A stretch of 28,739 nucleotides of DNA from assembly GCA_043811145.1 (NCBI GenBank), contig JBDRNN010000261.1, positions 1 to 28,739 of the forward strand, read 5' to 3'. A model generated the notes under the pieces. It saw only the letters and a program-made list of their open reading frames with translations. It had not been told where the DNA came from and searched no databases. Of this stretch, positions 646 to 19,863 are shown piece by piece. The translations under genes and the position numbers were made by a program. Origin of the DNA: Candidatus Bathyarchaeota archaeon. Lineage in GTDB: Archaea; Thermoproteota; Bathyarchaeia; Hecatellales; Hecatellaceae. Each line of letters starts with the position of its first letter. Position 1 is the first letter of the stretch.

Positions 646-1212
646 TTATCGTATCTCTAAAACCTCTGTTTTTGTTCTCTTAATTTTCTCCTGCAATACT
701 CTGACCGCATATATCTGAGCCTCAGGTCTAGGTGGACAACCGGGTACATATACATCAACTGGGAAGAGCCTATCGACACCTTGAATCACGCTGTAGGAAT
801 CATAAAACGGACCTCCGGCAATTGCGCACGAGCCAAGGGCTATAACATACTTAGGTTCAGGCATCTGCTCGTAAAGTAATTTTATTCGATTCGCCGTTTT
901 TTTTGTAACTGTCCCAGTGACAAACAGAAGGTCACATTGCCGTGGAGATGAGCGCGCTAGAAGACCAAATCTTTCCTGATCAAATCTGGATGCACCCATA
1001 GCAGCCCATTCTATAGAACAACAAGCTAAGCCGATATGCAATGGCCAGAGAGAGTTTCTTCGCCCCCAGTTAAAGAAACGCCCTGCTATCCAGTTAATCA
1101 GGTCTTTAATGAAGGTAACCGTAACAAACCATCTTAGAATTTCTGCTATACGTTCTGAGATGGTGCCTGTGAAAGTTTTCTTCTCTTCAATCCCATGATC
1201 TTCATTTATCAA
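646..1212 (-). CDS. nuoB: NADH:quinone oxidoreductase subunit B
   Basis: [33 protein letters not shown] and [14 protein letters not shown] (N2 cluster ligands). The TTG start overlaps the nuoA stop. Confidence 0.96.
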
Positions 1213-1574
1213 ACCCAGATCTTAGCCTCCTTTTTGAGCGCATAGGATAAACCTGTAACGAGAATCCCGACAAAGATAGCCATTTGAAGTTTAGCTATGA
1301 CAGTCAGGCTGGGGAGAGACACCGCCCATATTAACAGGAAAATAGAGACAACATCAAAAACAACGAATATTATAGCGAACATATAATATTGAAACCTAAA
1401 TTGGATCATAGCTTCTCCTTCGGGAATTTCCCCACACTCATAAGTGCTGAGCTTCTTCGGATTAGGCTTGAAGGGAGAAAGCCATCTAGAAACCAATATG
1501 ACCAGAACCACACCCACTATTGCTATAATGAATAGAAGAGCTACTGGCAGATAGCTTGCAAATACGGAAACCAA
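1209..1574 (-). CDS. nuoA: NADH:quinone oxidoreductase subunit A
   Basis: Three TM helices, [11 protein letters not shown] loop, [14 protein letters not shown]. Confidence 0.95.
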
Positions 1575-1761
1575 TTTTGACCCCCTTTTTAGAATTTGAA
1601 ACCGACCGTTAGTTTCACATTCTAACTTTTGTAAAAATGAATGTTTTGAAGATTTTTAAAAGCTTTCTTTCATTACAAATTCTCAGAAGGCTTTAAAAAA
1701 CCTAATTGAAACTGAAAAGAGAGATTGAAAAACAGTAGAAGCATTGCCTTGTAAGCTACAC

Positions 1762-2985
1762 TTAACTGGATGATGGAATAGCTCCTGTTAGTTCTGCGAA
1801 CAGATCAATCAAGTCCTTCAATTTCAATTTAGTGTTAATAGCTTTTATAGCGTCATTAAAGTTTACAACACAGAAAGGACATGATGTGGTTAACATAGAT
1901 GCTTTCGTAGCTATTGCTTCATCTACACGTCTCTTAGCGATGTTAAGAGCTAAGTCAGGTACACCTGATTTCAGCCCTCCACCAGCGCCACAACACCTAG
2001 AGTTTGACCGATTATTTTCCATTTCAATAAAACCTTTAATCGGTAAATTTTCAAGAATTTTCCTAGGTTCTTCGAATACGCCTACATGCCGACCTAAATG
2101 ACACGGATCGTGATAAGTTAAAACATCATCCAACTTCTTGACATATTTAACACGCCCGCTGTCAATTAATTCAGCTATAAATTGTGTTGCATGAACCATT
2201 TCGAAGGGCAAACGCTTACCGTAAAATCTAGGCCAATCTATAGTACCAGTTCTGAAGCAGCCTGCACAAGGAGTGACAACTCTCTGAACCCCCCTTGCAG
2301 CGAAACTTTCAACATTATGTACTATTGTATCTTTAGCGATGTCAAGAAGACCAGTTCTAATCAATGGAGAACAGCAACAATACTCTTCAGGACCCAAATA
2401 AGTAAATTTTACATTAAATTTATCCAGAATTTTAGCGAAATTAACTGCAAACCACTTTGTTTTATATGAAGAGGTACACCCAGCGAAAAACCCGATTTCA
2501 GCTTTGTCAACAGGTTTAATGTCTGGTGGCAACCAGTTGGGTCTGTTTTCCGGTAGCTCATCATAAGGGTTATGTTTTACCTTAATCCTAGGAGTGAACC
2601 CCGCATGCCTAGGAAGCGGCCCCTTCCCTAGTTTAACAAGCTCAGCTCGGAAAGCTTCCCATAACTCGATAGTGTCGATCCTTGCTTCACATACCTCTTT
2701 ACAAATTCCGCATACAGAACATTGGTACGAGTAATCCACTAGATTGCTTAAAATTTCATCGGCTTTTTTACGTTTGGGCCCAAAAAGCATTGCTGAGGGA
2801 CCGTACATCGCATTTGCATACGATTTTATCAGTCGGATACGCCCTCTGGCTGAGTTGTACTCGTTACCTGTCTCAGTGGTAGCGGGGCATACGGTTACAC
2901 ATTCACCGCACCTTGTACAGGCATCTAGCTCCATAAGTTGCGTTCGTGAGAGATGATAGGGGGAAAGTTTTCTAGTACTAAACAT
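1762..2985 (-). CDS. HdrD/GlcF-like Fe-S oxidoreductase (2x[4Fe-4S] plus two CCG domains)
   Basis: CTRCGECVTVCP and CSVCGICKEVC ferredoxin motifs. CCG motifs: FAGCT, EYCCCSP, TPCAGC, YHDPCHLGR, RCCGAGGG, TSCPFC. Confidence 0.9.
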   Translation of the reverse strand: MFSTRKLSPYHLSRTQLMELDACTRCGECVTVCPATTETGNEYNSARGRIRLIKSYANAMYGPSAMLFGPKRKKADEILSNLVDYSYQCSVCGICKEVCEARIDTIELWEAFRAELVKLGKGPLPRHAGFTPRIKVKHNPYDELPENRPNWLPPDIKPVDKAEIGFFAGCTSSYKTKWFAVNFAKILDKFNVKFTYLGPEEYCCCSPLIRTGLLDIAKDTIVHNVESFAARGVQRVVTPCAGCFRTGTIDWPRFYGKRLPFEMVHATQFIAELIDSGRVKYVKKLDDVLTYHDPCHLGRHVGVFEEPRKILENLPIKGFIEMENNRSNSRCCGAGGGLKSGVPDLALNIAKRRVDEAIATKASMLTTSCPFCVVNFNDAIKAINTKLKLKDLIDLFAELTGAIPSSS

Positions 2986-2994
2986 AAACCCGAT

Positions 2995-3741
2995 TCACCT
3001 CGCTAAGGGAACCTCAATGTAAGGTTCGGTTTTTATTTCATAAACCCATAATATCAGTGCTTTAGCAAACATGTGCATAAATTTACTGAAGGGTAGATAT
3101 GCCACAAGGGAGAAGGAGATAAGAGCGTGAACCAGATAGAGCGCTGAGTATAGGCTGGGGTCTATAATTGTCCATCGGCTCATCTCCACGAGGAAACCTG
3201 TACCTAAGCTAGCTAAAATCCAGGATGGAAAGGTAACATCGAATTCGACTGTGGTTGATCTAACCTTACCAATAACCGCCCTCCTGACTAAAGCGATGGT
3301 GCATCCTACCGCAACCATCATGCCGAAGAAGTCTAGGAGTATTTCTATAAACTCGGTAACTGTGAGAGTGGGAATTAGGTGAAGAGCAACAGCAGCGGGA
3401 GTTACTCCCAATAACACAGGTATCAAGGGGAGGGACGGAGGAACAAAAAACTCGAAATAGAAGAGAGCAAAATCCATGCTTACAAGACCAATTATTCCCC
3501 AAAAAATTAGCAGATGTACGACCCATCTAAAGTAGCTACGTAAATAAATCTGCCTCATCAAAAAGAGATCGACAATTAGAACTTTTAATAGAAGATAAAT
3601 TGCCTTAGGAAGGGAGACTTTAGTTCGACGATTTGTCTCAGGTGAAATACCACTACTCCACCGATAGAGGTTGAGAAGTATCCCTAGCGTTAAGACGGTT
3701 ATGGATGTAGTGCAAAGGTATATTACGTACCACGGAGCCAA
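2995..3741 (-). CDS. NarI/HdrE/DsrM-like membrane b-type cytochrome subunit
   Basis: About five TM helices with His in RWVVHLLIFWG, LVHAL and PFSKFMHMF. Lies 9 bp upstream of the HdrD-like gene. SD-like GAGGTTGGTG precedes the TTG. Confidence 0.85.
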   Translation of the reverse strand: MAPWYVIYLCTTSITVLTLGILLNLYRWSSGISPETNRRTKVSLPKAIYLLLKVLIVDLFLMRQIYLRSYFRWVVHLLIFWGIIGLVSMDFALFYFEFFVPPSLPLIPVLLGVTPAAVALHLIPTLTVTEFIEILLDFFGMMVAVGCTIALVRRAVIGKVRSTTVEFDVTFPSWILASLGTGFLVEMSRWTIIDPSLYSALYLVHALISFSLVAYLPFSKFMHMFAKALILWVYEIKTEPYIEVPLAR

Positions 3742-3947: not shown

Positions 3948-3974
3948 TTCAATATTTTGGGTAGCCAACATTTA
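3948..3974 (+). repeat. att-like direct repeat, left copy: TTCAATATTTTGGGTAGccAACATTTA
   Basis: 17-bp exact match and 25/27 overall match to 12433-12459. Confidence 0.9.
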
Positions 3975-3979
3975 GCTAA

Positions 3980-3997
3980 CACAATGTTTTAGAACTT
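3980..3997 (+). repeat. Internal inverted arm CACAATGTTTTAgAAcTT (pairs with 12411-12428)
   Basis: 3980-3991 is the exact reverse complement of 12417-12428. The match is 16/18 over the extended arm. Confidence 0.85.
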
Positions 3998-4142
3998 TTT
4001 ATGACAGAAAACGTCGGAATCAAAGTGACAACCCCCTGGGGGTGCTGAGATGGGAGGCGATCATTATGACATGAATCCGGTGGAGGATTCTCAGAATAAA
4101 AATATGTGTAACAAAAGTTACATTAGATAAAAAAGGGGAAGT

Positions 4143-5015
4143 TTAGAGCTCCTTTTTGAAACTGACTGCCGTTGCTACTCCGCCCAGAACTAACATGACT
4201 ATGCCTGCTATCATCAGCAGGGATATGTTGAAGGGTGAAGGCAATGGTGGCGATGTGAAGTTGTCGTTGGTGGTTGTGAAGAAGCTGAGTTTCAGGAAGT
4301 TTTCTCCGCTGACCCACTGCATGTAGCCGTAGACACGCCAGTCACCATCATTGGGTATAGTGTAGGATTTTGTCCAGTGGCTGTCTGTGTCTTTTGTGAG
4401 AGTCACGGTTGTCAGGGGTTCAAAGGTCTGCGCATTTTCAATATCCACATATACCTGAGCTATGTCCTGGGGATCTCGGGTGGCGACGAACTCAAAGTTG
4501 ATGTTTAACGTGTTCAGCTTGATTACCTGATCCGCAGAGGTCACGTCTATGCCGTTGACTCTGAAGTAGCCGTCAGGCTGCCCGGTTATGGCGTAGGTTG
4601 TATGTTCAAGGATGTTGGCTGGAGTCCAGCCGTCCCGGATAACCCAGTTGAATTGGTACAGGACACCGTTCCCGTTGGGAATTGTCCACTGCCATGAGTA
4701 AGTTTGGCTTCCATCCGGGTTAGTTGGCCAAGAAGATTTGGATGGTGTTGAGCTGTATCCAGTGGATGTTATTGTTAGGTCCGCACCTGCACCATGAACG
4801 TCATAAACCGTGATTGAGAGCTGTATCTCTGACCCAGCGTGAATGAGGTTAGCCGTGTTCGGGTCTGTGGAGTCGGGATAGATGGAGCGGATTTCAGGCG
4901 GAGTCGAATCTATTGATAACATGGACTGTGCTGGTGTGCTTGCGTCTGCTGCAAGAAGAACTGATCCGACAAGCAGCATGAGTACTCCTGCAAAAAAAAG
5001 TTGCTTAGATTTCAA
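4143..5015 (-). CDS. Hypothetical secreted protein with N-terminal signal peptide and C-terminal Pro-rich/TM/basic anchor
   Basis: Hydrophobic N-terminus (LFFAGVLMLLVGSVLLAADA), Thr/Asp-rich beta-type body and PPLPSP-TM-KK tail. GC-richer than the backbone. SD-like AGGTAA upstream. Confidence 0.8.
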   Translation of the reverse strand: MKSKQLFFAGVLMLLVGSVLLAADASTPAQSMLSIDSTPPEIRSIYPDSTDPNTANLIHAGSEIQLSITVYDVHGAGADLTITSTGYSSTPSKSSWPTNPDGSQTYSWQWTIPNGNGVLYQFNWVIRDGWTPANILEHTTYAITGQPDGYFRVNGIDVTSADQVIKLNTLNINFEFVATRDPQDIAQVYVDIENAQTFEPLTTVTLTKDTDSHWTKSYTIPNDGDWRVYGYMQWVSGENFLKLSFFTTTNDNFTSPPLPSPFNISLLMIAGIVMLVLGGVATAVSFKKEL

Positions 5016-5205
5016 GTTGATTACCTACAATAAAAATGGTTGCCAAATTATATTGCACCCAAAATTATAACAGCAAAAGCTACGAGGCCTTATTGGAAGG
5101 GCAAGAGGAAGCAGAACATAAAAACAGGAACAGTCTAAAGAAAAAACAATTACGATAGTACGGGATAAGGACGGGTAGTTAAATAATAAGTACCAAGTTT
5201 CTGTC

Positions 5206-5241
5206 GTGTGTGTGCATACCGAGGTACCCACACACACTTTT
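5206..5241. terminator. Stem-loop GTGTGTGTG...CACACACAC followed by a T-run
   Basis: 9-bp perfect arms (5206-5214 / 5229-5237) with an inner TACC/GGTA pair, then TTTT. Function unproven. Confidence 0.35.
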
Positions 5242-5267
5242 ATAACGATAGGTTCTTTATCTCGCAG

Positions 5268-5319
5268 AAAAGTTAAAAAATAACTTTTTATAGTTTTTAT
5301 CCTTTTTACGCAGTAATTT
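5268..5319 (+). repeat. Conserved non-coding site, copy A (AAGTT-N7-AACTT core plus TTAC-N3-GTAA box)
   Basis: 39/52 ungapped identity with 9377-9428 and identical spacing of two palindromic modules. Confidence 0.6.
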
Positions 5320-5355
5320 TGAAAGATTAAATTCCTGAAGAGGACAGATATTTGT

Positions 5356-6018
5356 ATGCGTGTTGTTGTTTCTTGGAGTGGCGGTAAGGAGAGCGGTCTC
5401 GCCTGCTATGAAGCCATCCATAAAGGTTTTGAAGTTGCCTATCTTTTGAATATGATAACTGAAGACGCAAAGGTATCTATGACTCACGGGATAAGTTCAA
5501 AATTACTCCATACACAATCGCAGGCTATAGGGATCCCGATAGTTCAAAGGAGCACAACCTGGAATACCTACGAAAAAGAATTCAAGAAGGCAGTATCTGA
5601 ACTAAAGCAGCAGAATGTAGAAGGTGTGGTTTTCGGAGATATCGACCTTCCGGAACACAGAAGTTGGAATGAGAGGGTTTGCAATGAGTTAAATGTTAAA
5701 CCCATTTTACCTTTATGGGAACAGAAACGTGAGCAAATACTCAACGGTTTTATAGATAAAGGATTTGAAGCACTCATAGTTAGCGCCAAAGCTGATTTAT
5801 TCGAGAATGAATGGGTTGGACATAAAATAGACAGAAACCTCATGGAATATTTACACGAACACAAGATTGACCTATGCGGCGAGTCAGGAGAATACCATAC
5901 ATTTGTTACCAACGGCCCGATATTTAGAAAACGCATAAAAATACTTGAGAGCAGAAAGATCATTAGGGACGGGTACGGGTTTCTGGATATTTTAAGATAC
6001 GAAATTCATGAGAAATAA
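5356..6018 (+). CDS. Diphthine-ammonia ligase (Dph6)-like PP-loop ATPase
   Basis: SWSGGKES PP-loop, VVFGDI and DLCGESGEYHTFVTNGPIF. Confidence 0.88.
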   Translation: MRVVVSWSGGKESGLACYEAIHKGFEVAYLLNMITEDAKVSMTHGISSKLLHTQSQAIGIPIVQRSTTWNTYEKEFKKAVSELKQQNVEGVVFGDIDLPEHRSWNERVCNELNVKPILPLWEQKREQILNGFIDKGFEALIVSAKADLFENEWVGHKIDRNLMEYLHEHKIDLCGESGEYHTFVTNGPIFRKRIKILESRKIIRDGYGFLDILRYEIHEK

Positions 6019-6152
6019 TCTAGCATTGTGCGTGTTACAGCAATGGTGCAGCCACCGAGATTTAAAACGGAAAGATCCAATTATTAACAATAAAGATCAT
6101 GAATGGTTCTTAACCGATACAGGCAAAGAAGTACCTTAAACACGGAACAGCA

Positions 6153-6840
6153 TCATGCAGCCGACAGGATAATAACTGAAACATTGAAAAAACTGTGAGC
6201 CATAACAGCAATGAGCACGCTTCCCTTGGTGTCGGAGATGCCGTCGTATTTTGGTAGTTTGTATGCGAGGAAATACCAGAGGATCCCCACGGCAAAGGCC
6301 ATGATTACGTAGAGTGGACTGAAGCCGGATAATGATGGTGTGGAAGACTGCCCAGATTCCGATGGAGGTGCCGGCTGCGATAAATTCGTTTTTTGTCCGC
6401 ACCAGCAGTGCGAGGATCATGCTGATTTTTAGGAATTCTTCAGCCGGAGCAACGAGGACCAGCTGCATGAGGCTTTCGCCCATGATTTGTGAGCCGAATG
6501 CGGCGATGCCGAACTGCGGAACATATAATAAACTGTTCACTGGGAAGACTAGGCCTGAGACGGCGACGTTTATCCAAGATATGAAGAAGGCACCAGCCAC
6601 ACCCAGTCCAGCATAAACCCAGTTGATTGTCGGCATGTTTCCTAGAAAAGATGGAATAGAATCGGTGGAGTCTTTCATGAAGACATGGAAGGCGATTACA
6701 GCTAGAACGCTGAACATCAACATGATGCTGAAGCTGACAACCACAGAGAACTGGCTGAACTGAAAATAGAACAACAGCAGAAACGAAATTACGTAAGGGA
6801 TGAAACAGAGAAAAACTGTTATGTCTGTAGCTGGTCGCAT
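6153..6840 (-). pseudogene. CPBP (CAAX/Abi) family intramembrane glutamic endopeptidase with a single-base frameshift near 6330
   Basis: APAEEFLK and IWAVFH motifs lie in one frame. After a one-base shift the frame reads SGFSPLYVIMAFAVGILW...SVLIAVMAHSFFNVSVIILSAA-stop (6153-6155), supplying the CPBP HxxxN motif. Confidence 0.8.
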
Positions 6841-6928
6841 TGTTAGTCAAATAAAAAATACTGTTGCTCAGTTCTACGACCAAGCTCTAAGCAGTTTTTA
6901 TATAGAAATGATGCATGTTCAGGAAAAT

Positions 6929-7135
6929 ATGGCCGACACCAGCCAAAGAAACGCCCGAGAAAACAATAATGCAGAAGATGAGATTGATGATGCGTTGAGA
7001 TGGCTTATCGCCTACACTCCGGACAGTTCTGGCAAATATGCGGAATGTCTTGAAAAGTTGCAGAAAAAAATCAGAGAGCTGAAAAAGCGGATCATAGATT
7101 TGGAAAGAAAGTCTGCTCCGCAATCAAATGAATAA
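6929..7135 (+). CDS. Small hypothetical protein with a C-terminal coiled coil
   Basis: The ATG at 6929 lies about 30 bp after a TTTATATA box and avoids overlap with the CPBP gene. Heptad-like LEKLQKKIRELKKRIIDLE. Confidence 0.5.
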   Translation: MADTSQRNARENNNAEDEIDDALRWLIAYTPDSSGKYAECLEKLQKKIRELKKRIIDLERKSAPQSNE

Positions 7136-7271
7136 ATTACAACGTTTTTTTGAAAAAATGTATAACCATAAAAAAGATGACGACTGGTAGCCTACCCAGC
7201 TAGTTTACGTATATTATCAGCAATTTTATCGATAACTTTAAAAATAAAAGATAGGGGAGGTTTATCTTCCT

Positions 7272-7499
7272 TTACCATGTGGGACTGACTGTCCTTCCAT
7301 GGGTTGTTGAAACCGTCCAGTGGGAGATGTCGACAGAGTTTGAGCTTGGGTTGTAAAGTTCAACCTACTCATTTCCAGAGTCAGTGCCACTCGGATTTTG
7401 CTCAACTTCAACCTTAAACTGCGACCCATTAAACTTAAAAATATAAGAATTAGAGTTCTGTAAAGCTGTTGCTAGATTAATCTGACTGGTAAAATTCGT
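7272..7499 (-). pseudogene. Lamin-tail-domain (LTD) protein remnant
   Basis: Manual translation EVEQNPSGTDSGNE*VELYNPSSNSVDISHWTVSTTHG matches the LTD NE...P....EWVELYN...VD.SGW pattern. TAG replaces the Trp codon at 7365-7367. Confidence 0.75.
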
Positions 7500-7542
7500 C
7501 TACTTTAAGAACAGTTAGGTATGGGATAGAATAGGGCTTAAC

Positions 7543-8469
7543 TTGCAAGAGATACCAATTACATTTTGGATAGCATTCCATGTTATAGTTGCTTTATTAC
7601 TCTTTATAGATCTGTCATATCATGGAAGAGCTTCTAAACTTAACTTTCGGCGAGATGTTATTTGGAGCATTATCTGGATAGCTGCAGGATTAGCATTTGG
7701 AGTTTTTATCTTTTGGTACTTCGGCTATAGAGGAGGTTTAGAATATTTTACAGCTTATATTGTAGAAAAATCGCTAAGCGTCGATAATCTTTTTGTTTTC
7801 ATAGTGATATTCAATTATTTTGCAGTTCCATTTGTTCACCAGCATAAAACTTTATTTTTAGGGATTCTTGGTGCCATGATTTTCAGGAGCATTTTTATAT
7901 TTGCAGGAATAGCTCTTTTGGGACAATTTAACTGGATGATTTACGTTTTTGGCGCTGTTTTATTGTATTCTGGATATGCGCTAGCTCGAGGTAAGATGGA
8001 GCGGGTTGATCCTGAAAAGAATAGGATAGTTAAGATTGCTAGAAGATTCCTTCCGATATCGTCTCAGTATGTTGGTGGCAAGTTCACATCTAAAAAGAGT
8101 GGAAAAATCATATTCACTCCTTTGATTCTAGCTCTGCTTGCAATAGAGACAACTGACATATTGTTTGCATTTGATTCAATTCCAGCAGTTTTGGCAATAA
8201 CTCAGGAATTTTACATAGCGTACACTTCAAATATAATGGCGATATTAGGCTTGAGAGCCCTATATTTTGTTCTTGCAAATGCTTTGCGTAGACTTGTTTA
8301 CCTAAGTAAAGGCTTAGCGATAGTTCTCTCATATTTAGGCTTTAAATTCATAGTATCTGCTTTTGGAATAGAGATACCCACTTTGCTCTCATTATTTGTT
8401 GTTTCAGGCATTGTTCTAATCTGCATATTGGCTTCTATATTTAAAGAGGTCCGTCACAGTCGTATATGA
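7543..8469 (+). CDS. TerC/Alx family metal-homeostasis membrane protein
   Basis: YIVEKSLSVDNLFVF, GILGAMIFR, IETTDILFAFDSIPAVLAIT and YTSNIMAILGLRALYF. Confidence 0.93.
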   Translation: MQEIPITFWIAFHVIVALLLFIDLSYHGRASKLNFRRDVIWSIIWIAAGLAFGVFIFWYFGYRGGLEYFTAYIVEKSLSVDNLFVFIVIFNYFAVPFVHQHKTLFLGILGAMIFRSIFIFAGIALLGQFNWMIYVFGAVLLYSGYALARGKMERVDPEKNRIVKIARRFLPISSQYVGGKFTSKKSGKIIFTPLILALLAIETTDILFAFDSIPAVLAITQEFYIAYTSNIMAILGLRALYFVLANALRRLVYLSKGLAIVLSYLGFKFIVSAFGIEIPTLLSLFVVSGIVLICILASIFKEVRHSRI

Positions 8470-8613
8470 GAAAAACTAAAGGTCACACCTATTTTATAAA
8501 CCCAATAAAATTTCTTCCTTACTTTAAAAACTACATAATGCAATATGCAGAACTATGAAAAAAGTTTAAGATCTGGCTCCGTTATCTACATGTCCTAAGA
8601 GTAGAGTAAAACA

Positions 8614-9075
8614 TTGAGTTTTGTTGAACTAATTCAAGTTACATTGGCGCCTGTTGTACTTATCACAGCGGTTGCTTTAATAAACATCTCACAATACGCC
8701 CGATACGGACGTATCCATGACAGGATAAGACAACTTCTTAAAGATGTTGAAAAAATAAATCTCGCTAAGATCTCTGAAGAGATACGAAACAAAAAGATTG
8801 CCGTCTCAAAGGATCAGCTAAGAATTTTTTTGGAAAGAGCTAGACTTGCTAAATGGTCATTAGTTTTAATGCAGCTTTCGTTAGTAGCTTCTGCGATAGA
8901 TGCCATCTTAATTTTTATTAATGTTGCAGTGCTTGTAGAGCTAGGTTTTGTTATAATCATAATATTTGGGTTTAGTGTTTTGCTAATTTTAATCGGAGCT
9001 ATTTTAGCAGCATTTGAAATATACAAATCATTAAAAGGGTTACATCTGGAAATTGAAGCAGTCATTAAGAGCTAG
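8614..9075 (+). CDS. DUF2721-like membrane protein
   Basis: IQVTLAPVVLI...RYGRIHDRIRQL followed by two TM helices. Confidence 0.7.
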   Translation: MSFVELIQVTLAPVVLITAVALINISQYARYGRIHDRIRQLLKDVEKINLAKISEEIRNKKIAVSKDQLRIFLERARLAKWSLVLMQLSLVASAIDAILIFINVAVLVELGFVIIIIFGFSVLLILIGAILAAFEIYKSLKGLHLEIEAVIKS

Positions 9076-9153
9076 CTTCTTTTAGTTTAAAGTTTAAGTT
9101 AAGGAATTTAGTAATATATTCTGGAGGCTAACCTTTGTCTAAGATGTTTGCAA

Positions 9154-9677
9154 TTACTCGTGTACGAAAGACACGGAAGAAAGATGAAGGCAGACACAAA
9201 GCCAAGAAGAAAAAGCTAGTTGACTAGCTTAATTTGGAGTCAAATTGTCCTTTCACTCGATATCATGATTTTATTTCATTTTTCTCGGCGATAGCGGCGA
9301 TTAGCCGCCTCAGCTCGGCGACCTGAAACATTTTCCCTGAGATTTGACTTTACCGAGTAAATTGGCGGAAACTATAAAAAGTTAAAATTTAACTTTTTTA
9401 CTGTTTTCCCTATTTTACCGAGTAATTTGTGAGTTAAGGAGAAATGTTTCACGAGTAGTTTTTAATAAAGAACGGAATGGGAAATAGCTTTAAATTCGAT
9501 AAGCCTGCATTGAAAAATGGCAAATATGAACAAACCCCCCCCCTCAAAATAAAAATTGGGGAAGATTTCAAGTGGTCTCCCTTTTCAAAAAATAAATACG
9601 GTGAGAAATTTTTAGATTTTAACTTTTAACCGTTTACTTCTTTCACTCGAGAATAATATTTCAAAGGGGGTTTTGTT
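9154..9677. repeat. Repeat-rich non-coding region
   Basis: TTTACCGAGTAA x2 (9349, 9414), CTTTCACTCGA x2 (9250, 9640), six ACTCG/CGAGT cores, a central palindrome at 9376-9398, and facing C9 (9535-9543) and G5 (9666-9670) tracts. Confidence 0.6.
9377..9428 (+). repeat. Conserved non-coding site, copy B
   Basis: Direct-orientation homologue of 5268-5319. Confidence 0.6.
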
Positions 9678-9781
9678 ACAAATTATAACGACATTGGAAG
9701 TTTGAGATTGGAAAAGAGTGGATATGTAAAAGTTAATCTGGGTTTCTATCTTAACCGTTTATGACAGGTTGTTTTTGTAAC

Positions 9782-10360
9782 ATGTTCGATGAAATCACGA
9801 TAATATTTCTTTCGTTATTTTTAATAATGGATGCATTTGGCAGTATGCCTATCTTTCTTTCTCTGACTACCGATGTTAAAACGAGGCGTAAACAAGCGTA
9901 TGTTACGAGCTACGCAGTCCTAGTTGCGGGGTTGGTATTATTTGTTTTTCTTTTCTTTGGCCAAGATATCTTAACTGTGTTTAAGATTCATCTTTCATCA
10001 CTCAAAATTGCGGGAGGTATGGTATTGGTGGCACTAGGCTTTGAGATAGTAGTTGGGATAGGTTTTATGCGTACAAGTTTTGGCTCATCGCCTGCAATAA
10101 CGCTGATAGGTACCCCGTTACTAACAGGACCAGGAGTAATCGCAACCACGATGATTTTCGTGCAGGAGTATGGATATTTGGTTACCGTTCTCGCCTCTCT
10201 TGCCGTTCTAGGTTCTAGCTGGGTTATTCTTTTTACCGCAAAATATCTGCGCCGTGTACTAGGCAAAAGTGGTTTGGATATTATTTCCAGAGTAATAGGT
10301 CTCCTACTGATTGCTATAGCGGTTGAACTCATCATCGATGGATTAAAGGCAGCCTTTTAA
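9782..10360 (+). CDS. MarC family membrane protein
   Basis: LFLIMDAFGSMPIFLSLT, LKIAGGMVL, GTPLLTGPGVIAT and IISRVIGLLLIAIAVELII. The ATG at 9782 is preferred over 9761. Confidence 0.93.
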   Translation: MFDEITIIFLSLFLIMDAFGSMPIFLSLTTDVKTRRKQAYVTSYAVLVAGLVLFVFLFFGQDILTVFKIHLSSLKIAGGMVLVALGFEIVVGIGFMRTSFGSSPAITLIGTPLLTGPGVIATTMIFVQEYGYLVTVLASLAVLGSSWVILFTAKYLRRVLGKSGLDIISRVIGLLLIAIAVELIIDGLKAAF

Positions 10361-10725
10361 GCAAACATTCGAAGAAATTAAAGCGCAGACTCAACTCATA
10401 GCCATTCAGAAGGTTACAAGGCTTTATTGATTATAAAGCAAAATGGGTTGGAGTCCCAACTGTTTACGTGAATGCTATGGACAGTTCAAGAACATGCTCA
10501 ATATGCGAGTTTAAAACAGACCTGGAAGAGCAGGAAAATCTCAACTGCCCCCAATGCGGCGTCACCATAAACAGACAAGTGAATGCCACTTTAAACCTCC
10601 TCAAAACTCAAGATGACACCCTAAGGTTCAGGGTGGATAGCCTCTCAAACGTAGAGATGCTCAGACCCTTAAACAAGGCTGAAATCCAAAAAGAGGAGGG
10701 AATTATTCAGCCATATGCCGAATAG
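10360..10725 (+). pseudogene. tnpB: IS200/IS605-family TnpB C-terminal remnant
   Basis: The frame extended upstream reads [42 protein letters not shown]...CPQCG...NRQVNATLNL. W is replaced by TAG at 10399-10401. The N-terminal part and tnpA are absent. Confidence 0.85.
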
Positions 10726-10750
10726 TTACCAAACAAAAAAATATACCTTT

Positions 10751-10766
10751 GTCCCCTCCGGGGGAC
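10751..10766. terminator. GC hairpin GTCCCC-TCCG-GGGGAC between convergent genes
   Basis: 6-bp perfect stem with T-tracts nearby on both strands. It could instead be the IS right-end hairpin. Confidence 0.4.
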
Positions 10767-10789
10767 TAGGCTTTTGAAAGTTTTCAGGG

Positions 10790-11815
10790 TTATGCGGAAT
10801 ATTGTACTGCGTCGCTTATGCTTACTGGCGATCCTGTCGAGTCAAGTCCGGTGACTGTTAGCGTGGCCGTGATGACGTCGCTGGTTGCCAGGTCCCAGAC
10901 AAGTTTGCCAGTCGCATCGAACTTGTTTATCTGGTTCACACCATAGTCAAGACGTTTAGCTGTGTCCACTGTGCTGCCGACGGTGTAGGTGTAGATCGTG
11001 TTGGTGCCATCCTGGGATAATGTGAATGATGTCAATGGGATGTATCCAACGCCGTGTAGGTAGACTGCGGATTCAGATGCCACCAGTTTCGTTTTGTCGG
11101 TTGAGTTGTATTTCAGCTCGTACTGGTAGAGCAGATGGCTGCGTTTGGTGGTGGTGAAGTTCAGATCCCATCCGGCAAATTTTGTGACTTTGGCTGTGCC
11201 GACGCTTGCTACATCATCCGGACTGGTTTTGAATGCGATTGCCTCATAGGTTCTCAGGAAGCCTTGTATGTTGACTGTTGGGTTTCCAGCCTCAGTGACA
11301 TACTTATCACCGATATAGACGGGTACTACGTAGTCTTTGATCTGATCATTTGTTACATCTTTGAATTCCCAGTCGTCGATGCGGGTGGTTACCTGGTTCA
11401 TTTTTTCAAGGTCCCAGTAGTATGTTTGTCCAGATTTGGGTGGTACGGTGAGGACGGCGTAAACGTAGCCTCCGTCTTGTTCGGTTACTTCCGCATCTGT
11501 CACGTCTCCGCTGCCTAACAGAACCCAGTTGCCGCCACGGTAGGCGTACCAGTAGAAGTCATAGTTGGTTCCTGATGTCAGTGCGGAGAGATCGAATGCG
11601 TCGTAACATGCTTCGTTGAGGTTGATTTCGCCGACGTAGAATGTTTCACCTGTAGTTGTTGTTCCTGTTTGTCCGGTGCCTGTGCCTGTTCCTGTTTGTG
11701 ATGTTTGCTGTGCTGGCCCGAAGGACAGATTGCCTGTTACGGCTGTAAAACCTAGCGATGCGATGATGACGAGTAGAAGAGCTCCGAGTACTGTGTTTTT
11801 AGTTCCTGCTTTCAT
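10790..11815 (-). CDS. Hypothetical N-terminally anchored/secreted protein with Thr-Gly linker and beta-rich ectodomain
   Basis: N-terminal TM, QTGTGTGTGQTGTTTTG linker and acidic/Thr/Tyr-rich body. Intact ORF in the GC-richer part of the island. Confidence 0.8.
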   Translation of the reverse strand: MKAGTKNTVLGALLLVIIASLGFTAVTGNLSFGPAQQTSQTGTGTGTGQTGTTTTGETFYVGEINLNEACYDAFDLSALTSGTNYDFYWYAYRGGNWVLLGSGDVTDAEVTEQDGGYVYAVLTVPPKSGQTYYWDLEKMNQVTTRIDDWEFKDVTNDQIKDYVVPVYIGDKYVTEAGNPTVNIQGFLRTYEAIAFKTSPDDVASVGTAKVTKFAGWDLNFTTTKRSHLLYQYELKYNSTDKTKLVASESAVYLHGVGYIPLTSFTLSQDGTNTIYTYTVGSTVDTAKRLDYGVNQINKFDATGKLVWDLATSDVITATLTVTGLDSTGSPVSISDAVQYSA

Positions 11816-11842
11816 GATGATATCCTTCTAATATAAAAATGG

Positions 11843-12145
11843 TTACTTTTTCCTTGCGTAGTAGGCTCCTCCACCAGCCAGTGCGATGCCGAATGCGATG
11901 AAGACTGCCTGAATTGGGCTTATGGGAATTGGGTTTGCTCCTGTGTCAACGAACAGTGACATCAAAGTGAAGCTGTCGCCGAAGACCGTGTTGATCTTCC
12001 CGATGACGTGGAAGTTTCCTTCAGCTGGAAACGTGTACTGTACACTCCATAATGTGTCCGCTGTCGTCTCCGCCAAAGTTGGTGTTGCTATGATGCGCCA
12101 TTCAGGGATGACTCCACCGTAGAGCTGTTTGACGGTGACCTGAAC
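11843..12145 (-). pseudogene. 5'-truncated C-terminal fragment of a paralogue of the 4143-5015 protein
   Basis: Open frame from 12145 without a good start. 13/36 ungapped identity to the 4143 protein, plus the same Pro-TM-RKK tail. Confidence 0.75.
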
Positions 12146-12386
12146 TCAAGGTCTCTTGTCGTCTGATCCAATTTTGAAGTGTATCTATGTGCTTGTAGAG
12201 TTCTTTTCCTTTCAACTGTTCGAATTCTTCAAGAACATCTTCGGGTGAACGACCCAGTCGTGTGAAATAGTTGTATGCGAAAACTGATGCAAAATACTTG
12301 TTTCCGAGGGAATCCAGCCATTTGGATATGGACGGGTGGGATGCTATCCATGGTTTCACGTTTGAGTTGCGGGTGTCAAGGACCAA
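12102..12386 (-). pseudogene. Probable N-terminal (core-binding) fragment of a tyrosine recombinase/integrase
   Basis: SISKWLDSL...YFTRLGRSPEDVLEE...HIDTLQNW resembles N-termini of archaeal site-specific integrases. It starts 47 bp inside the att repeat, behind a TATA-like TTTTATAAG. No catalytic domain is present. Confidence 0.5.
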
Positions 12387-12410
12387 GGTGAAACTAATTT
12401 CCGCAGCTGG

Positions 12411-12428
12411 AACTTATAAAACATTGTG
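12411..12428 (-). repeat. Internal inverted arm (pairs with 3980-3997)
   Basis: TAAAACATTGTG at 12417-12428 is the exact reverse complement of 3980-3991. Confidence 0.85.
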
Positions 12429-12432
12429 CCAA

Positions 12433-12459
12433 TTCAATATTTTGGGTAGAAAACATTTA
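12433..12459 (+). repeat. att-like direct repeat, right copy: TTCAATATTTTGGGTAGaaAACATTTA
   Basis: Overlaps the last codons and TGA stop of the 12434-13993 gene and has an 11-6-11 imperfect inverted architecture. Confidence 0.9.
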
Positions 12460-13993
12460 TGATGAACCTATAGGCCTTTGTGATCCATCCTAAAACTATC
12501 AGACCTATGTTAAAAACAATGGCTGCTGCGGGGAATCCAAGTTCATCCTCTATCCACTTGTCAAATCTAAGCCTTGTTCTAACAGAGACTGTTTTGCTAG
12601 GGTTGAAACTGTTTTTTTTGTCGATGCTCATCTTAACAAGCTTCATGAACTCGACAGCCGGTTGTCCTTTACCTAACCTCATAAAGAAATAGTTCCATAA
12701 ACCTGCTCCGTAGGGCTTCCCGTTACATTTGATTCCCAAGTTAACAATATCTTTAGATAGAGGGTAAGAAAGTATAAACTGAAATTTTCTCTTCTCGCTT
12801 AAAAAAAAGGACGGCATCATAACCATGGAGTTATGGGCGGCTACAAAACCCTTTACTGCAACATGTGCACGATAAAGCCGAGAATATCTATGGCATTTTT
12901 TTATGAAAAACTCTATTTTATTTAGAGGTATAATTACCTCTTCACCGAGAAATGAAGGTCCTAACCTCTTAACCCGAAGAGGCATAAATCTTCCTTCCCA
13001 AAGACCTTCTCCTGCTGAAGGCAAGAATGCAGCTTTACCTTCTTCAATTAGATTAGCGCAAAGATCGTGGAAAGTTTGAGATCCCCTCTCAACTTCCAAG
13101 TTTTCTCCTTCAAAAATAATTAAAAGGAGGGCGTCAGCCTCAGGTAGCTTTAGTTTTAGTTTCTTGCTCATCTCAAGGCAGCCTTGATCCAGAAACTCTA
13201 CATGGAAAGGTTTGATGTTGGAATGCAGTAGATTTATTAGGAGAGTTTGAGCGTCTGCTAAACTTTTGAAACTGTAGGCTAAAGGAAGAATCCTGTCATG
13301 TTTTGGATAAACTTTAATGACAGCCTCTGTAACTGTTCCTAAAGTTCCTTCAGCTCCTATGTATAGCCAGTTTAGGTTATATCCTGATGCGAAAAGTATC
13401 TGATTATTATTTGTTGTATTGATAATTTCACCTGTAGGAGTTACAACCTTTAAACTGGTCACTTGCTCTCCAACTGAACCGTATTTTAAGCTACCAATAC
13501 CTAAGCCTCCAGTTGATATCCATCCACCTACAGTTGCTGAAGGGGCGCTACTAGGATATGCGCCTAACATATAGCCTCTCGTATTAAGGTAGTCTTGAAG
13601 GTCCTTCCATCGCACTCCAGCTTGAACCTTCACTACCATCTCGTTCTTGTCAAAGTCTAAAATCTCGTTCATACCTGTCAAGTCAAGTAAGAGACCACCC
13701 CTACCTGGAACCGCCCCCCCGAAAGATGCGGTAGATGCTCCTCTGGGTGTAATAGGAATTCCAACTATATGCGCCCGACGAACAACTTCTGATACTTCGC
13801 TTGCAGTGTTAGGCCTGAATATTATGTCAGGGATCATTCGGAAAAATATTCTAATAACAGTAGTTCTAACTGGGCCTATAACTGGCGCTAAATCATGACT
13901 ATAAGCAATTCTTTCAAGTGTATCAGTTGTAACCTTCTCAGCTCCAAAATCTTTCAATAAACCCTCATAAAGTTCTAGCCAGTTTGTTCTCAA
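12434..13993 (-). CDS. FAD-binding oxidoreductase (GlcD/D-lactate dehydrogenase, VAO/PCMH-type fold)
   Basis: PITPRGASTASFGG, VQAGVRW, YPSSAPSATVGGWISTGGLG, IGAEGTLG and DKKNSFNPSK. Confidence 0.9.
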   Translation of the reverse strand: MRTNWLELYEGLLKDFGAEKVTTDTLERIAYSHDLAPVIGPVRTTVIRIFFRMIPDIIFRPNTASEVSEVVRRAHIVGIPITPRGASTASFGGAVPGRGGLLLDLTGMNEILDFDKNEMVVKVQAGVRWKDLQDYLNTRGYMLGAYPSSAPSATVGGWISTGGLGIGSLKYGSVGEQVTSLKVVTPTGEIINTTNNNQILFASGYNLNWLYIGAEGTLGTVTEAVIKVYPKHDRILPLAYSFKSLADAQTLLINLLHSNIKPFHVEFLDQGCLEMSKKLKLKLPEADALLLIIFEGENLEVERGSQTFHDLCANLIEEGKAAFLPSAGEGLWEGRFMPLRVKRLGPSFLGEEVIIPLNKIEFFIKKCHRYSRLYRAHVAVKGFVAAHNSMVMMPSFFLSEKRKFQFILSYPLSKDIVNLGIKCNGKPYGAGLWNYFFMRLGKGQPAVEFMKLVKMSIDKKNSFNPSKTVSVRTRLRFDKWIEDELGFPAAAIVFNIGLIVLGWITKAYRFIINVFYPKY

Positions 13994-18681: not shown

Positions 18682-18972
18682 TTACCCAAGCTTGGAGATT
18701 ATTCCCTCTCCTCCAAGAGGATAACTCCAATCAATTGCTTTGACAACGCACAGATTGAAACATGTTCCACATTCAAGGCAGAATTCCATACCGTACTTCC
18801 AAGCAGCTACATCTTCCATCTCCCAAGAACCGCTCGGACAGAACTTAACACAAAGACCACAACCAGTACATCTTTCATTTATAACTTTGATATGAGATTT
18901 TGTTTTCTGCGTACGCTGTGTTAATCTCTTTACTGTTTCTCTTAGCTGGGTTCTAGAAGATTTTGACAACAT
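18682..18972 (-). CDS. FixX-like ferredoxin
   Basis: SHIKV, CTGCGLCVKFCP, CLECGTC..LC and the FixX-typical W.YP.GGEG tail. Confidence 0.85.
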   Translation of the reverse strand: MLSKSSRTQLRETVKRLTQRTQKTKSHIKVINERCTGCGLCVKFCPSGSWEMEDVAAWKYGMEFCLECGTCFNLCVVKAIDWSYPLGGEGIISKLG

Positions 18973-19726: not shown

Positions 19727-19863
19727 GCCGGGATGGCTGAGTGGTCAAAAGCGCAGATTCAGCTCGAATCCACCGAGCTAAAGCGGAAGCCTTGAGTTTG
19801 ACCTATAAAGAAAGCCTGTGGCCCTTCTGGGTCTCGCGGGTTCAAATCCCTCTCCCGGCGCCA
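19727..19863 (+). tRNA. tRNA-Ser(UGA) with two introns (29/30: 19757-19788; 37/38: 19797-19812), CCA encoded
   Basis: Acceptor GCCGGGA/TCCCGGC, G73, GGTTCAAATCC T-loop and a long variable arm. The anticodon stem CAGGC/GCCTG with loop CT-TGA-GA forms only after both inserts are removed. Confidence 0.88.

Follow-up and report, generated by a model that had tools for sequence, protein, structure and literature searches.

The window analysed here is a 28,739-nucleotide stretch of DNA, the longest contig (C261) of a metagenome-assembled genome (MAG) of Candidatus Bathyarchaeota archaeon, an assembly of 1.53 Mb in 284 contigs that is 88% complete. Within it lies an 8.5-kb island (positions 3948-12459) that lies at the 3' end of a gene for a flavin adenine dinucleotide (FAD)-binding oxidoreductase, is bounded by two copies of a 27-bp direct repeat, and carries the remnant of an integrase gene beside the right copy. 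We consider it very probable that the island is the worn-out remnant of a mobile element that an integrase inserted at the stop codon of this flavoprotein gene in an uncultured Bathyarchaeia archaeon. The features on which the argument is built are listed below, where attL and attR designate the left and right attachment (att) sites and ORF an open reading frame.

1762-3741, minus strand: left chromosomal flank, with an HdrE-like membrane protein (2995-3741) and an HdrD-like CCG/Fe-S protein (1762-2985)
3948-3974, no strand: attL, the left 27-bp copy, with the 17-bp identity block at 3948-3964
3980-3997, no strand: left inner inverted-repeat arm, perfect over CACAATGTTTTA (3980-3991), a further copy of the core half-site
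12102-12386, minus strand: integrase remnant, a 94-codon ORF; over ~90 residues from its start it corresponds to the core-binding (N-terminal) domain of a divergent tyrosine recombinase
12411-12428, no strand: right inner inverted-repeat arm, perfect over TAAAACATTGTG (12417-12428)
12433-12459, no strand: attR, the right copy, comprising the final 7 codons of the FAD oxidoreductase and its TGA stop (12434-12436)
12434-13993, minus strand: target gene, a GlcD/D-lactate dehydrogenase-like FAD-binding oxidoreductase of 519 aa (FAD_binding_4/FAD-oxidase_C), intact after insertion

The repeat pair and its symmetry

The initial annotation described the repeat, TTCAATATTTTGGGTAG(CC/AA)AACATTTA, as 17 bp exact and 25 of 27 bp overall, and this is what we find at both places. 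It also read the right copy as N V F Y P K Y stop and the left as N V G Y P K Y stop, and both readings hold on the minus strand, the right copy being the end of the FAD oxidoreductase; however, an in-frame TAA directly precedes the left copy, which therefore belongs to no gene, and the similarity of the left copy to the gene tail ends at the repeat boundary. A Bathyarchaeia MAG protein of 40% identity, which is the target protein's closest homologue, aligns to the last residues, and because the C-terminal tail is conserved in this way we regard the right copy as the native gene end. The concern that the 17-mer might be frequent genome-wide, voiced in the same annotation, can be set aside, as exactly 2 exact copies are present in the whole assembly. 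In the window these same two places are the only matches, also with 2 mismatches permitted, and a set of 100 shuffles that preserve dinucleotides yields no match to the 17-mer. Neither ARAGORN nor Rfam finds a tRNA or other RNA gene at the att sites.

There is one near-copy of the 17-mer elsewhere in the genome, at 939-955 on the minus strand of contig C138, which has 1 mismatch and shares 14 nt (CTACCCAAAATATT). It sits within a surface-protein-like ORF and its flanks are dissimilar to the att flanks; it is probably due to chance, or may alternatively be a secondary site.

Read on the gene strand, attR is a dyad, TAAATGTTTT-CTACCC-AAAATATTGA, in which 8 of 10 positions match between the half-sites (a 10-6-10 arrangement), and the att site of the FAD gene does have dyad symmetry. 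Dyads of this arrangement that match at 8/10 positions or more have a frequency of 7e-4 per position, with 20 in the window, 2 of these at attR. The identity block spans one half-site and the 6-bp centre. The two 18-nt inner arms are complementary at 16 of 18 positions, and a perfect 12-bp inverted repeat such as they contain arises by chance in 25 of 200,000 random pairs of 45-mers from this genome. When the island ends are joined, as in a circularised form, the arms come to lie exactly 15 + 6 + 15 nt apart around the centre GGGTAG. Judged from its sequence, this repeat layout is that of the core site of a simple tyrosine recombinase. The part of attL at 3965-3974 (CCAACATTTA) would then be element-derived, and the predicted empty-site junction, with 3947 joined to 12450, would read ...GGAATTTCAATATTTTGGGTAGAAAACATTTATGA....

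Both flanks of the island are parts of one respiratory cluster, with two FAD oxidoreductases, a cytochrome b and UbiE on one side and the HdrE-like and HdrD-like proteins, nuoA and nuoB on the other. In a relative of the same family (G003) and one of the same class (G016) some 70 bp separate the FAD orthologue from the HdrD-like gene that comes next, and on the contig of the closest homologue the FAD gene and the HdrD-like gene are 2.5 kb apart. G003 and G016 show an empty site in their gene order only.

The integrase remnant, its family and their targets

The start of the remnant lies 47 bp inside the right repeat. It keeps ~90 of ~405 residues, and the catalytic domain is missing. Pfam and PHROG give no match for this 94-codon ORF; its relationship is seen instead with two full-length ORFs of the same genome, one on contig C179 (405 aa) and one on contig C164 (441 aa), to whose N-termini it is 38-40% identical. 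They belong to a family of which the protein collection contains about 90 members; these come from Bathyarchaeia, Archaeoglobus and others, and a number of them are labelled integrase or XerC. Family members score below the Pfam Phage_integrase cut-off (15.8-25 bits vs 27.1), and their N-terminal domain matches the Ndc10_N or Phage_int_SAM models of Pfam. A sequence search of PDB with the integrase profile gave no match, and no family member was found among the viral contigs of IMG/VR. An AlphaFold model of the C179 protein (mean predicted local distance difference test score, pLDDT, of 88) has Foldseek matches to IntI, Cre, archaeal XerA, Tn1549 Int, lambda Int and the catalytic domain of SSV1 Int, and on this model the protein is predicted to fold as a two-domain tyrosine recombinase. 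Residues K202, H292, R295, H318 and Y325 are invariant across the paralogue family, the H-x-x-R motif included.

At C179 residues 165-173 the family alignments read G-(L/I)-A-E-F with an invariant Glu, at a position where we take Cre to read L-R-I-A-E-I with its first catalytic Arg; this first catalytic Arg was not located in the family. It may be missing or supplied from elsewhere, R200 and R286 being nearly invariant in the alignments.

The members of the family that adjoin protein genes, here and in other genomes, are as follows.

Contig C179 (locus L035), 1071-2288, minus strand: full-length paralogue, directly downstream of and co-oriented with a 2-hydroxyacid dehydrogenase gene, gap 155 bp
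Contig C164 (locus L036), 954-2279, minus strand: full-length paralogue, downstream of and co-oriented with a deoxyhypusine synthase (DHS) gene (aIF5A-DHS pair), gap 119 bp
Loci L053 (3103-3149), L064 (3252-3313), L066 (9423-9467) and L059 (4310-4423): relatives after protein-gene stop codons, gaps 43-112 bp

Among the 30 integrase-family loci from species-representative genomes that formed our comparison set, at least 7 show a tRNA gene on the integrase strand, with its end 70-150 bp upstream of the integrase. Both element ends fall inside the fetched flanks in two loci only, L047, a 6.9-kb element at tRNA-Lys with a 28-bp repeat containing one mismatch, and L056, a 9.3-kb element at a tRNA 3' end with a 30-bp repeat containing one mismatch. 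These two loci and the window have in common the same order and spacing, namely the 3' end of the target, the att site, about 50-80 bp and then the integrase, and in all three alike the mismatch is gene-proximal to the exact block. Short inverted repeats just inside both ends copy the core half-site in the relatives as well (GTGGGTTCA in L056 and GGTTCAAC in L047), and in both of them the integrase stays whole in the integrated state.

Other relatives lie beside protein genes. In two Bathyarchaeota MAGs they are downstream of and co-oriented with rps10 at gaps of 45-60 bp, and further neighbours are PCNA (43 bp, in a Nitrososphaerota MAG) and LonB (112 bp). The rps10 junctions contain the dyad ATATAAC-N6-GTTATAT across the stop codon, and dyads with 5-6-bp centres overlap the stop codons of both the DHS and the rps10 genes. 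Going by position only, DHS, rps10 and the other adjoining protein genes would be the targets of these integrases. On contig C164 the dyad that overlaps the DHS stop codon is CACTATC-TTAGC-GATAGT, and more copies of GATAGT are found close by. Searches with 11- and 14-mers for second att copies belonging to the C164 and C179 integrases gave chance-level matches only, in the contigs and in the assembly, and no second att copy was found for the rps10 dyads either.

These comparisons divide the proposal in the initial annotation of an integrative element family that targets a respiratory flavoprotein gene. Site-specific integration at a stop codon with preservation of the gene end is upheld by the piece of integrase gene beside attR, by an att layout shared with the tRNA-associated relatives, by the adjacency of the flanks elsewhere and by the foreign composition of the island (see below). 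A family specific to the FAD gene is not, for the window remains a single case: exact-pattern scans with the 27-mer, both variants allowed, found no other copy of the att site in three public collections (metagenome, viral and genome), no integrase or island follows the FAD orthologues in L024, L025 and L026, and the integrase clade adjoins tRNA genes and the genes for DHS, 2-hydroxyacid dehydrogenase, rps10, PCNA and LonB.

A broader proposal, which we put forward tentatively and hold to be somewhat less probable than its negation, is that the clade comprises undescribed simple Cre/Xer-like archaeal integrases of Bathyarchaeia, Archaeoglobi and Nitrososphaerota, with an Ndc10_N-like domain and a sub-cut-off catalytic domain. 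Such enzymes would recognise short dyads built around 6 bp, would have shifted repeatedly between tRNA T-arm/acceptor sites and similar-looking stop-codon dyads (those of FAD oxidoreductase, rps10, deoxyhypusine synthase and PCNA), and might use half-site copies in attP in place of arm-type sites. If true, this would answer the question raised in a 2021 review (PMC8371274) of whether attB sites in protein genes carry the dyad symmetry that tyrosine recombinases need.

History and content of the island

The most probable history is that an element with a simple (Cre/Xer-like, two-domain) tyrosine recombinase integrated at a dyad-symmetric 27-bp site overlapping the stop codon of the FAD gene. 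Strand exchange would have taken place in or beside the 6-bp centre GGGTAG, within the 17-bp identity block, and with exchange inside this block the coding sequence and stop codon would therefore have been kept. The two mismatches would reflect the presence of an element-derived half-site in attL and of the native half-site in attR. Afterwards the element would have been immobilised, when a deletion took about 310 integrase codons and joined what was left of the integrase to the end of a surface-protein gene; the gene for the CPBP protease would also have been truncated, and a low-GC block of plus-strand membrane-protein genes together with a TnpB fragment would have come between genes that are neighbours in a related element. 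The genes that the island carries today are listed here.

4143-5015, minus strand: o290, a full-length 290-aa secreted protein with a C-terminal anchor, from a family of 155 cluster representatives
5356-6018, plus strand: Diphthami_syn_2-family ATP-binding protein, a second, patchily distributed paralogue (the other copy is on contig C191)
6334-6840, minus strand: CPBP (Rce1-like) protease remnant, matching residues 4-167 of a 258-aa homologue, with the rest of the ORF out of register
7543-8469, plus strand: TerC-family membrane protein
8614-9075, plus strand: DUF2721 membrane protein, patchy (5/40 relatives), with an unusually high 61% identity to G003
9761-10360, plus strand: MarC-family membrane protein, the only copy in the assembly
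10468-10725, plus strand: TnpB fragment of 85 codons, a C-terminal, Cas12f1-like TNB domain and a remnant of IS200/IS605 type
10790-11815, minus strand: o341, an intact 341-aa membrane-anchored protein with no assigned function
11843-12097, minus strand: o290-family fragment, a 77-codon C-terminal piece (model positions 196-279 of 281) of a second o290-family gene

In its composition the island is foreign, and it is uneven along its length. Its ends have a GC content of 0.46-0.47 (98-99th percentile of 1-kb windows) and its middle one of 0.36 (5th percentile), and its tetranucleotide distance reaches the 96-99th percentile, with flanks that are typical. The element is also dead and mosaic, as the integrase, a surface-protein gene and the CPBP protease gene are truncated and a TnpB fragment is present. 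Since the 77-codon ORF beside the integrase remnant is the tail of an o290-family gene, one deletion took most of both genes. The att site is outside the integrase ORF, and no C-terminal integrase half was found next to an att copy in the window or the genome; the truncation would be a deletion.

Searches of Pfam and PHROG with o94, o77, o290 and o341 gave nothing useful. The o290 family is represented in 0/60 relatives, and TerC in 0/40 relatives searched. Homologues of o341 are found only in metagenomic loci that resemble mobile elements, one gene from an Rce1-like CPBP protease. In three of these loci (L071-L073, on metagenome contigs) a gene string of a 199-aa protein, the o341 homologue, a 159-aa protein and the Rce1-like CPBP protease has upstream of it an integrase, a DNA methyltransferase, an AAA_5 ATPase and ORFans, which makes them candidates for a related element or provirus with the same surface-protein/protease module. 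A possible relatedness of o290 and o341 was considered and set aside, the comparison having found them unrelated.

A 52-nt sequence with an internal palindrome (AAAAGTTAAAA..TAACTTTT) occurs at 5268-5319 and again 4.1 kb away at 9377-9428 with 75% identity, and the stretches at 9369-9397 and 9612-9635 belong to the same observation. Each 52-nt copy lies upstream of a plus-strand gene of the island, one before the Diphthami_syn_2 gene and the other before a small ORF that precedes MarC. The repeat may act as an operator or promoter common to both genes, or be left over from a secondary insertion.

Two relatives show MarC in other settings. In G001 (locus L078) MarC is 1.7 kb downstream of rps10, and in G030 (locus L077) it is near a homologue of the window ORF at 18682-18972. 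An integrase between rps10 and MarC in G001 was considered and rejected, as the gene there resembles pyruvate kinase, a judgement made on the translation by eye.

Alternative explanations and known systems

Several observations weigh against insertion by an integrase. No catalytic integrase domain (R-K-H-R-H/W-Y) is present anywhere in the window, where the C-terminal half was not found at E values up to 10; the relatives that supply the synteny are distant and do not have the HdrE-like gene found here between attL and HdrD; and no homologue of the target gene comes closer than 40% identity, with the att sequence absent from all collections scanned. MarC, moreover, is present in 13/13 relatives of the family, and this 88%-complete assembly has no MarC besides that of the island; it could be that part of the island is native DNA that moved in later. 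This last consideration leads to a proposal that we rate at even odds and that refines the explanation by integrase insertion rather than excluding it, namely that only the high-GC minus-strand ends (the integrase remnant, the o290-family genes, o341 and the CPBP remnant) are the element and that the low-GC block, at about 6.8-10.7 kb and with TerC, DUF2721, MarC, the TnpB fragment and perhaps the Diphthami_syn_2 gene, was acquired subsequently, its source being another element or the host's own chromosome. It is favoured by the contrast in GC content between middle and ends, by the TnpB fragment at the edge of the block, by the status of MarC as a family gene with its sole copy here, and by the L071-L073 string, in which one gene for a 159-aa protein separates the o341 homologue from CPBP, whereas in the window the CPBP homologue is ~4 kb from o341 with the low-GC, opposite-strand TerC, DUF2721 and MarC genes and the TnpB fragment between them. 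However, no repeats or insertion-sequence ends bound the block, and an origin in the host does not sit well with TerC, found in none of the relatives, or with MarC, whose terminal branch in the tree is 4.25 against a median of 0.37 and which falls outside both family clades, so that neither gene resembles resident DNA. By its sequence the island MarC fits a xenologue better than a resident gene, which is not proof. The simplest reading is a minus-strand high-GC backbone with a later secondary insertion.

The remaining explanations do without integrase insertion altogether, and we find all of them highly improbable. The repeat might be fortuitous or functionally unrelated, with a variable accessory region between its copies and the integrase fragment as an unrelated relic, and the loss of integrase function and the want of a nucleotide-level empty site among relatives so distant would accord with this; it is nevertheless very unlikely in view of the shuffles, of the uniqueness of the repeat in the genome, of its distance from the integrase start and its orientation as in relatives, of a dyad with flanking half-site copies as in L047 and L056, and of copies that bracket exactly the compositionally odd DNA. 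Inverted repeats near both ends, just inside the direct repeat, might also recall a cut-and-paste or casposon-like transposon with terminal inverted repeats and a target-site duplication. These arms, however, are 5 and 4 nt off the direct repeat (15 and 4 nt from the 17-bp block) and become symmetric only when the island is circularised, the direct repeat contains mismatches, the island has no Cas1, PolB or DDE transposase and only an internal 85-codon TnpB fragment, and an integrase remnant stands at its end; we have rejected this explanation and give it hardly any probability. Just as improbable is an error of assembly or binning by which the island was wrongly joined into the contig, as might be suspected in a MAG so fragmented and incomplete and with an island whose composition is unlike that of its flanks. 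Assemblers normally join on k-mers longer than 17 bp, and the exact repeat falls below these; a mis-join would not yield two repeat copies with matching inverted arms around an integrase remnant, and the two flanks adjoin in relatives. The correctness of the assembly at the island is in this way argued from structure.

Insertion by an integrase at the end of a protein gene, which we prefer, is already documented for archaeal elements (PMC6563490, PMC8371274). In one survey of 2019, 14/68 elements use targets of this kind, NitEve-E2 being an example (PMC6563490), and a review of archaeal tyrosine recombinases lists further protein-gene cases, none of them tested, and asks about their dyad symmetry (PMC8371274). 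Elements of the NitEve-E2 type resemble the island in having a tyrosine recombinase, short direct att repeats over the end or stop codon of a protein gene, and a cargo of cellular-like and unknown genes, a 'cryptic integrated element'. The island differs from them in its host, a member of Bathyarchaeia, in its target gene, in a longer att site (27 bp), in a stop codon that is preserved rather than replaced, and in its decay; and whereas the elements of that survey (PMC6563490) were validated by empty-site comparison, the empty site of the island is known at the gene-order level only. The island is a clean but fairly ordinary example that adds to a known phenomenon and does not change it.

With the integrases of pNOB8 type, which do not partition (PMC8371274), the island clade has in common an integrase that lies beside the att site rather than across it and is whole when integrated (L047, L056), and several members target tRNA 3' ends; the clade falls below the Pfam Phage_integrase cut-off and has an Ndc10_N match, and it is likened to these integrases by layout and not by sequence membership. 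The 'suicidal' integrases of SSV type (PMC7253208) share with the island an archaeal integrase that is incomplete when integrated, but their att site is inside the integrase ORF and both halves persist, whereas here the att site is 47 bp upstream of the start codon. We have rejected a partitioning integrase of this type, as the att site is outside the ORF, no C-terminal half is present at attL and the relatives are intact when integrated. The simple recombinases (Xer/dif, archaeal XerA/dif and Cre/loxP, with 11-6-11 or 13-8-13 sites) are like the clade in having a two-domain fold and no separate arm-binding domain, and the site in the island is likewise a dyad, of roughly 10-bp half-sites around a 6-bp centre. 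Unlike them, the island enzyme serves a mobile element, its site is at a gene end, and the predicted attP would have extra half-sites 15 nt on each side.

To our knowledge almost no mobile elements have been characterised in Bathyarchaeia, and the island gives a well-delimited horizontal gene gain in this group, of TerC, MarC and DUF2721 membrane proteins together with a surface-protein/CPBP module. For an integrase clade with intact members elsewhere in this genome, it further offers a candidate attB/attP pair whose dyad architecture is clear. The island interrupts a cluster of respiratory genes (two FAD oxidoreductases, then the HdrE/HdrD-like pair and nuo genes), whose co-expression it may affect. 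Elsewhere in the window, and unrelated to the island, Rfam finds at 19727-19860 on the plus strand a tRNA of 134 nt (35 bits) that ARAGORN misses and that probably contains an intron.

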